DNA of 20,418 nucleotides from a virus. Positions within the stretch are counted from its first letter, which is position 1; each line of letters begins with the position of its first letter. Under the pieces are notes generated by a model that saw nothing but the letters and a program-made list of their open reading frames with translations, ran no database searches and had not been told where the DNA came from. Below, in pieces: positions 8,024 through 8,411 of the stretch. The translations under genes and the position numbers were made by a program. The stretch lies in UHGV virus genome UHGV-0101751. The stretch is one strand, 5' to 3'.

Positions 8024-8275
8024 ATGTTCGACGGCCTGTTGTTCAAAATGAAATCCGCTTTGTTCACTCTGGCCGCCGTCATTCTAGTCCTTGTCGGCGC
8101 ATACTCCTATGGCGGGTATATGGCCAGACGCAGTATGGAAGAGAAAGAACGGCGGGAAGATAACAAGCGTCTTCAAAGCACAGTGGAAGTGGTGAATGAG
8201 ACGAACAGTGAAATACGTCAGAAAGATGCTTCTGCCATTCATCGTGAGCTGCATGATAAGTGGGTGCGTAATTAA
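8024..8275 (+). CDS. Inner-membrane spanin-like protein (Rz-like; 83 aa)
   Basis: N-terminal transmembrane helix (ALFTLAAVILVLVGAY) followed by a charged helical region. It contains the start of a lipoprotein ORF in another frame. Confidence 0.45.
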   Translation: MFDGLLFKMKSALFTLAAVILVLVGAYSYGGYMARRSMEEKERREDNKRLQSTVEVVNETNSEIRQKDASAIHRELHDKWVRN

Positions 8276-8411
8276 GCCACAGACCACCAGCGTGTTGTTC
8301 TGCGATGGCGCTGAACCTATTTATATCAGCAATGACGATGTAATGACCGAAGAAACCGAACGCCAAATCCTTTTTCACAATACGATGGGAGAGAGAGTTT
8401 GCGGTTGGTGA
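8196..8411 (+). CDS. Outer-membrane spanin-like lipoprotein (Rz1-like), overlapping the previous gene out of frame
   Basis: Signal peptide with lipobox ISGC (MLLPFIVSCMISGC). Starts inside 8024-8275 in a different frame, the classic overlapped spanin layout. Alternative start at 8226. Confidence 0.45.
   Translation: MRRTVKYVRKMLLPFIVSCMISGCVIKPQTTSVLFCDGAEPIYISNDDVMTEETERQILFHNTMGERVCGW

Follow-up and report, generated by a model that had tools for sequence, protein, structure and literature searches.

Lambda Rz, 153 aa long, contains periplasmic cysteines as well as two coiled-coil segments. Together with the outer-membrane lipoprotein Rz1, which is encoded in the +1 frame and fully embedded in the Rz gene, this helical inner-membrane subunit forms a complex that spans the periplasm, is freed from the peptidoglycan by endolysin, oligomerizes, and fuses the membranes, and Rz1 itself carries a penta-proline stretch (PMC5295617). 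Salmonella phage SSU5 has already been placed among the "overlapped" two-component spanins, with its o-spanin in the "Chi" family (Kongari et al. 2018, PMC6139136). The same paper gives the lipobox consensus as [LVI][ASTVI][GAS]C, classes an 8-bp overlap as the "separated" architecture, and proposes a role for disulfides as general in spanins.

A four-gene lysis cassette is common to the E. coli phage-plasmid Cyrano, SSU5, Klebsiella pJN2-26, PhiR41_1, and pLAO18, a plasmid of E. coli. In SSU5 and Cyrano, the spanin genes (SSU5_028/SSU5_029 and CYRAN_24/25) come directly after a holin gene and a complete endolysin gene of 230 codons. In Chi, a virulent flagellotropic siphovirus that is not plasmid-borne, and in Pseudomonas phage SS2019XI, an endolysin gene precedes a short i-spanin gene with its overlapping o-spanin gene. 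Cyrano, with its intact cassette, makes virions (PMC9928086). Phage-plasmids can turn into plasmids when phage genes are lost; this has been described for elements of the P1-like type, and SSU5-like elements that are defective have also been noted (PMC10879196, PMC12977533).

An overlapped spanin pair of the SSU5 type

We analyzed a spanin-like gene pair on a stretch of DNA of 20,418 nt, which as a whole is called the window below. It differs at 2 of 20,418 positions from NZ_CP058829.1 (84481-104898), a 169,932-bp IncFIB multidrug-resistance plasmid from a wastewater isolate of Shigella flexneri. The original prediction described a gene for an N-terminal transmembrane protein that holds the start of an out-of-frame lipoprotein gene, and it read this arrangement as overlapped Rz/Rz1 architecture. 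Both statements agree with our results. The i-spanin (Rz-like) gene lies at 8024..8275 and the o-spanin (Rz1-like) gene at 8196..8411, both on the + strand. Rz1 starts 172 nt into Rz, which places it in the +1 frame, shares 80 nt with it, and extends 136 nt past its end.

The 83-aa Rz product has a single N-terminal hydrophobic stretch (Kyte-Doolittle windows spanning aa 4-34) followed by a helical, predicted periplasmic part, and it contains no cysteine. Single-sequence AlphaFold2 models it as one continuous helix over aa 2-82 (mean pLDDT 90.6). From homology, the protein would be expected to adopt an N-in/C-out (type II) topology. Rz1 is predicted to be a 71-aa lipoprotein precursor. Its N-terminus, MRRTVKYVRK-MLLPFIVSCM-ISGC, runs from a basic n-region through a hydrophobic core to a canonical lipobox with Cys24, and ISGC fits the published consensus. 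The residue at +2 of the mature protein is Val, so that there is no Asp inner-membrane retention signal. The lipobox check proposed alongside the original prediction therefore came out in its favor. An upstream candidate lipobox, IVSC (Cys19), was dropped; ISGC (Cys24) is the invariant position in the alignment. Rz1 has two invariant cysteines besides the one expected to be lipid-modified.

Profile searches against PHROG assigned Rz to phrog_1026, "Rz-like spanin" (E 4.2e-22), and Rz1 to phrog_1275, an Rz-like spanin family (E 2.9e-25). The homologs in SSU5 and Chi are themselves annotated and catalogued as spanins. A Pfam search gave no significant match for Rz, Rz1, holin, endolysin, or portal. 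By tblastn, Rz matched 14 phage records, with 63-70% identity to its counterparts in Cyrano, SSU5, and Klebsiella phage-plasmids, and Rz1 matched 220 phage records, including SSU5 (69%) and Chi (41%). We aligned the pair with those of Cyrano, SSU5, PhiR41_1, Klebsiella pJN2-26, Pseudomonas SS2019XI, and Chi. Across all aligned homologs the i-spanin is 79-84 aa long, and the start of the o-spanin gene is in every case in the +1 frame and precedes the stop codon of the i-spanin gene by 74-89 nt. The lipobox residues SGC, two further cysteines, and a C-terminal C-x-W are invariant in 7 homologs. The inner-membrane partner had been singled out as short at 83 aa; the length is correct, but it is ordinary for this family, and a truncated Rz product is ruled out by the same range of lengths.

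SSU5 and Cyrano share with the window an 83-aa Rz, an Rz1 start 172 nt into it, the +1 frame, the 80-nt overlap, the position of the lipobox, and the conserved cysteines, with identities of 65-69% for Rz and 69-96% for Rz1. The downstream neighbors also correspond, with a toxin-antitoxin module in Cyrano and ParA in both Cyrano and SSU5. They differ in what precedes the pair: where these two have holin and complete endolysin, the window has only the last 58 endolysin codons, fused to a head-scaffold gene. The Chi cassette (chi_002 to chi_005) is more distant. It has a similar endolysin C-terminal region, an 84-aa i-spanin, and a 67-aa o-spanin with a 74-nt overlap in the +1 frame. The Chi o-spanin, 41% identical to the window Rz1, has the SGC lipobox and two further cysteines in common with it, but the i-spanin is too diverged for tblastn with the window Rz. 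The lambda pair resembles the window pair in its helical inner-membrane subunit and its outer-membrane lipoprotein in the +1 frame. It differs in that Rz1 is embedded rather than overlapped, in the much longer, cysteine-containing Rz (153 versus 83 aa), and in the proline stretch, in place of which the mature window o-spanin has only two prolines; in the Pfam search, which gave no significant match, similarity between the two pairs was not detectable.

By every sequence-level criterion of Summer 2007 and Kongari 2018, the window pair classifies as an overlapped two-component spanin. An alternative is that these are not spanins at all: a small membrane protein might carry a chance overlapping ORF, or a misassembly might have created a false neighborhood. 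The missing Pfam matches would fit such a reading, as would the absence of the 71-aa ORF from the RefSeq tables and of its exact product from a 15-billion-protein collection. The strong PHROG spanin matches weigh heavily against it, and the +1-frame Rz1 ORF with its SGC is retained down to 36-40% identity in Chi and the Pseudomonas phage, in each case directly after the endolysin gene. The original prediction had named conservation of the lipoprotein ORF in relatives as its test, and the ORF is conserved. The database absence reflects overlap-avoiding gene callers (see below), and an artifact is contradicted by recurrence of the deletion junction described in the next section in 5 independently finished plasmids. 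We regard this alternative as practically negligible.

The ORF upstream of the spanins is a deletion chimera

The ORF directly upstream of Rz (7254-8021, + strand) encodes 255 aa. It had been described as a coiled-coil protein with only a C-terminal transmembrane helix, and a hydropathy scan confirms a single hydrophobic helix at aa 224-248; its standing as a native gene did not survive comparison with relatives. Residues 1-197 are 97% identical to the head scaffold SSU5_004 and match phrog_7069 and phrog_206 ("head scaffolding protein"), while residues 198-255 correspond to the end of an endolysin, with the match to phrog_873 ("endolysin") limited to aa 196-248. The ORF is thus made up of the 5' part of the head-scaffold gene, codons 1-197 (7254..7845, + strand), and the 3' remnant of the endolysin gene, its last 58 codons and stop (7844..8021, + strand), which encodes a linker and the C-terminal membrane helix. 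The remnant is 85% identical to Cyrano endolysin aa 169-230 and 100% identical at the DNA level to pLAO18, and its identity was confirmed by alignment with six full-length endolysins and by a three-way DNA alignment. In megablast, the match to SSU5 (portal and scaffold region) stops at 7845, and the match to Cyrano (end of the lysis cassette) begins at 7844.

Comparison with pLAO18 (NZ_OP242248.1), the closest intact relative fetched (99.4% identical over the left flank and 99.7% over the right), shows one clean gap of 23,238 bp (3 x 7746, in frame) at record positions 47728-70963. The dinucleotide TA stands at both parental breakpoints, so that the junction occupies 7844..7845 of the window and is common to both parental sequences. 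About 23 structural genes lie between the breakpoints in pLAO18. The missing segment holds the rest of the scaffold gene, the major capsid and other head genes, tail genes, the tape measure, the tail fiber, fiber-assembly genes, the holin gene, and the first 172 endolysin codons. We read the event as a deletion rather than an insertion because truncated genes stand on both sides and many relatives are intact. An inversion was ruled out: there is no reciprocal junction, and none of the tested missing genes is on the replicon. The sequence comparison accordingly identifies the 255-aa ORF as a deletion product and no native gene, and the "hypothetical protein" under which it is filed, WP_023135661.1, can serve as a marker of this defective deletion lineage. 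The parts of PMC10879196 and PMC12977533 that we consulted, in a literature search that was not exhaustive, do not mention a 23.2-kb scaffold-to-endolysin deletion.

The endolysin family to which the remnant belongs is common to SSU5-like phage-plasmids and Chi-like phages. Its members are 230-237 aa long with a conserved C-terminal region, give no significant Pfam match, and are named "membrane protein" by PGAP; examples are the genes at L001:3486-4178 (Cyrano), L007:3893-4585 (SSU5), L011:1797-2504 (Pseudomonas SS2019XI), and L012:1610-2323 (Chi). A C-terminal membrane helix scored by hydropathy in 5 of 6 sequences (aa ~199-227); the Chi segment is conserved but falls below threshold. Signal-anchor-release endolysins are anchored at the N-terminus, and a C-terminal anchor is unusual. 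This anchor may bear on how the cassette is regulated.

Holin and the endolysin N-terminal region are absent from the plasmid

The original prediction reported no holin or endolysin in the window and proposed that the lysis cassette might be split. The first statement stands for holin and for the N-terminal region of endolysin, and fails for the last 58 endolysin codons, which are present in the upstream ORF. We searched the whole near-identical 169,932-bp plasmid by tblastn with ten queries: Cyrano holin, endolysin, Rz, and a partial tail-fiber protein, and SSU5 scaffold, major capsid, and SSU5_006 to SSU5_009. The matches were confined to scaffold aa 1-197, endolysin aa 169-230, and Rz. Holin of the Cyrano/pLAO18 type and the N-terminal, putatively catalytic region of endolysin were found neither in the window nor on this one plasmid, and the plasmid likewise gave no match to major capsid, SSU5_006 to SSU5_009, or the partial tail fiber. 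Residues 1-130 of endolysin, which belong to the deleted part, are the region that matches transglycosylase-containing PHROGs. The annotated features of the plasmid include no endolysin or holin, and no further ORF of the window falls in the PHROG lysis category. Since neither holin nor the endolysin N-terminal region was found on the plasmid, the cassette is truncated rather than split. The locus has the gene content neither of a functional holin-endolysin-spanin cassette nor of a functional SSU5-like phage-plasmid. A co-resident host prophage could serve as a source of endolysin in trans.

The identical junction occurs in 5 finished plasmids, of which two come from silver gull and one each from human pus, wastewater, and bovine feces, and this recurrence in independently finished sequences indicates that the deletion is real and not an assembly artifact. 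Among 5,426 complete E. coli genomes, 3 have the junction and about 30 others have both halves apart. On 177 contigs the exact chimeric protein is present, and at least 1,000 have the exact Rz. Rz has the same protein accession, WP_023135660.1, for the window and for intact pLAO18 (RefSeq).

Why are the spanin genes still there?

The spanin genes are intact on an element that has lost the holin gene and most of the endolysin gene. Between 7844 and 9104 the window and intact pLAO18 show zero nucleotide differences, and the spanin genes are 100% identical. Measured by sequence divergence, the deletion is therefore recent, and the intactness of the genes is uninformative about selection. We consider it highly probable (about 0.92) that this is a genuine SSU5-like phage-plasmid spanin pair stranded by the 23-kb deletion, and that ordinary genome decay accounts for it. 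Intact relatives have the order tail fiber, holin, endolysin, Rz/Rz1, the KacTA toxin-antitoxin, and ParA, with terminase, portal, scaffold, and capsid about 23 kb upstream. In the window, one illegitimate-recombination event at the 2-nt TA microhomology removed 23,238 bp, between scaffold codon 197 and the last 58 codons of endolysin. The event took out the capsid, tail, fiber, and holin genes together with the endolysin N-terminal region, and created the in-frame scaffold::endolysin-anchor chimera. The remnant now lies between IS26 copies in a mosaic multidrug-resistance plasmid. The spanin genes probably owe their survival to the recent date of the deletion and to the nearness, at 33 nt, of the toxin-antitoxin and partition genes, which are needed to hold the plasmid in the cell.

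A bridge from inner-membrane helix to outer-membrane lipoprotein could still form. Under the lambda model, in which fusion has to await degradation of the peptidoglycan, spanins without endolysin would be trapped and inert. On homology and this model, the spanin genes are most likely recent hitch-hiking remnants that would be unable to act without endolysin. This reading draws further support from NZ_CP100983.1, in which an independent IS3-family event also kept Rz beside the toxin-antitoxin and ParA genes. We assume that the remnant genes are neutral in the deletion lineage of 177 contigs.

The proposal of a split cassette, with holin and endolysin moved elsewhere on the replicon by inversion or IS26 shuffling and host lysis still possible, has some appeal in a plasmid so heavily rearranged by IS26 and other insertion sequences, across which segments of the phage-plasmid backbone lie scattered. 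The whole-plasmid search and the annotation described above argue against it, the two deletion flanks meet directly at one 2-nt junction, and the three junction-bearing E. coli plasmids are absent from the 60 holin/endolysin DNA matches listed, which include all 25 records of at least 95% identity and leave 79 records of lower identity outside. We hold such a relocation to be extremely improbable. The original prediction had also suggested that the pair was repurposed, which our results do not support. Selection would in that case have favored a non-lytic role, such as envelope remodeling, vesicle release, or cargo release resembling type 10 secretion, in which the anchored chimera might take part. 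In line with this, neither spanin gene is damaged, the chimera keeps the reading frame, the lineage spans 177 contigs from several hosts and continents, a second, independent truncation (NZ_CP100983.1) also keeps Rz, and the use of lysis cassettes for toxin release is known (PMC10847048). Each of these points has a simpler counterpart: sequence identical to that of an intact phage-plasmid over 7844-9104 leaves no time for decay, the 33-nt distance to the toxin-antitoxin/ParA module explains retention, and an in-frame junction is expected by chance 1 time in 3. To our knowledge, the repurposed lysis cassettes described so far all retain an endolysin, and no endolysin domain is left here. Repurposing is accordingly very improbable in our estimate.

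Whether it is the orphan pair or the chimera that is considered, an acquired and selected function is very unlikely. One form of that idea deserves to be spelled out. The pair, perhaps with the chimera and the terminase and portal genes, might be kept by selection for an endolysin-independent envelope function, or as part of a satellite-like element that uses a helper SSU5-like phage. If the satellite-like version were true, the helper would provide capsids and lysis enzymes, and the element would supply packaging and outer-membrane disruption. We judge this proposal, in either version, very improbable. The favored reading, a pair stranded by deletion, involves nothing new in kind: a catalogued spanin family stands at a mapped deletion scar. 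The locus illustrates how a spanin pair that stands alone can be accounted for by a single mapped deletion without recourse to new biology, and it has little import beyond annotation. The junction at 7844-7845 resolves, to the base pair, one step by which an SSU5-like phage-plasmid decayed into an ordinary multidrug-resistance plasmid. In this it resembles the phage-plasmid-derived plasmids of PMC10879196 and PMC12977533, whose virion and lysis genes are gone, which have acquired resistance genes and insertion sequences, and which persist as plasmids.

Two other plasmids have rearrangements in the same region. In NZ_CP100983.1 (L013:2763-4339) an IS3-family element abuts the last 27 endolysin codons and the upstream lysis genes are gone, and in pHNAH968, NZ_CP104619.1 (L014:3486-6120), an IS91-family element interrupts the 3' end of endolysin. 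Both keep Rz beside the toxin-antitoxin and ParA genes. These independent rearrangements suggest that decay of phage-plasmids repeatedly strikes the lysis region.

Neighboring genes and expression

Residual packaging genes lie upstream on the same strand as the spanins (3723..7231, +) and follow the SSU5 gene order. They comprise a DNA-binding protein that is a putative small terminase (3723-4364, +), the large terminase (4367-5623, +), and the portal (5657-7231, +; phrog_145 "portal protein," E 8e-140), with further support from phrog_867 and Pfam Terminase_6N. Downstream, on the opposite strand, are a GNAT toxin of the KacT/TacT type (8444-8965, -; Pfam Acetyltransf_1, annotated KacT in Cyrano) and a TacA/DUF1778 antitoxin (8973-9242, -; Pfam TacA1, E 3.5e-26, annotated as antitoxin in Cyrano). 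These are followed by a ParA-like partition ATPase (9562..10227, +; Pfam MipZ/AAA_31 and phrog_164 "ParA-like partition protein").

Rz1 and KacT are convergent, with 32 nt between their stop codons (33 nt from stop to stop, 8411-8444). Between the end of the portal gene and the end of Rz1 there is no terminator-like site. The first one downstream is a GC-rich hairpin at 8419..8440 (+ strand) with a 9-bp stem and 6 GC pairs, identified by pattern match; placed between Rz1 and KacT, it could act as a terminator for both directions. Across 3200-9600 we found three sigma-70-like sites, fewer than the mean of 5.6 in shuffled sequence, one of them inside the 3' end of the portal gene (7128-7156), which gives no ground for proposing a dedicated promoter. 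Given that no terminator-like site precedes the end of Rz1, expression of the spanins, if any, would be by read-through from the residual late operon.

Rz1 is missing or shortened in annotations

The Rz1 gene has no entry in the RefSeq and PLSDB tables, and its exact 71-aa product was not found in the 15-billion-protein collection. In the annotations of Cyrano, pJN2-26, and PhiR41_1, only a 39-52-aa 3' piece of the Rz1 frame is present, without signal peptide or lipobox. The loci with missing or shortened annotation are window 8196-8411, L001:4352-4567, L010:2673-2888, and L009:2492-2731. We attribute the absence of Rz1 from the databases to the avoidance of overlaps by gene callers. Annotation pipelines systematically skip or shorten the Rz1 gene of this family.

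Boundaries of the window and other damage

The outer 54 nt on each side of the window (1-54 and 20365-20418) are IS26 termini. The left terminal inverted repeat, at 41..54 on the - strand, is an exact GGCACTGTTGCAAA and forms the left boundary of the phage-plasmid-derived segment; the right one, at 20365..20378 on the + strand, is likewise an exact 14-nt repeat. The annotation of NZ_CP058829.1 places an IS26 transposase gene immediately beyond the window. Megablast identifies the window as part of an SSU5-like phage-plasmid, and the DNA derived from it spans about 55-17448. A 5'-truncated Tn3-family transposase gene (17482-20343, - strand), without its first ~45 codons, lies at the right-hand IS26. 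The mosaic resistance plasmid also holds ttr, bcs, ars, class 1 integron, blaTEM-1, and tet(A) modules.

Relative to pLAO18 there is a second gap, of about 2.07 kb, at window position ~2568 (ORFs 2183-2611 and 2601-3251). Two genes are cut short there: a ParB-like gene lacks its 3' part (matching profile positions 5-125 of 223), and an ABC-ATPase-like gene lacks its 5' part (matching profile positions 83-294 of 295). The ORF at 13876-14541 matches the DNA primase profile phrog_47 at positions 24-178 of 947 only. It looks like a primase fragment, which is another sign of a degraded phage-plasmid backbone.
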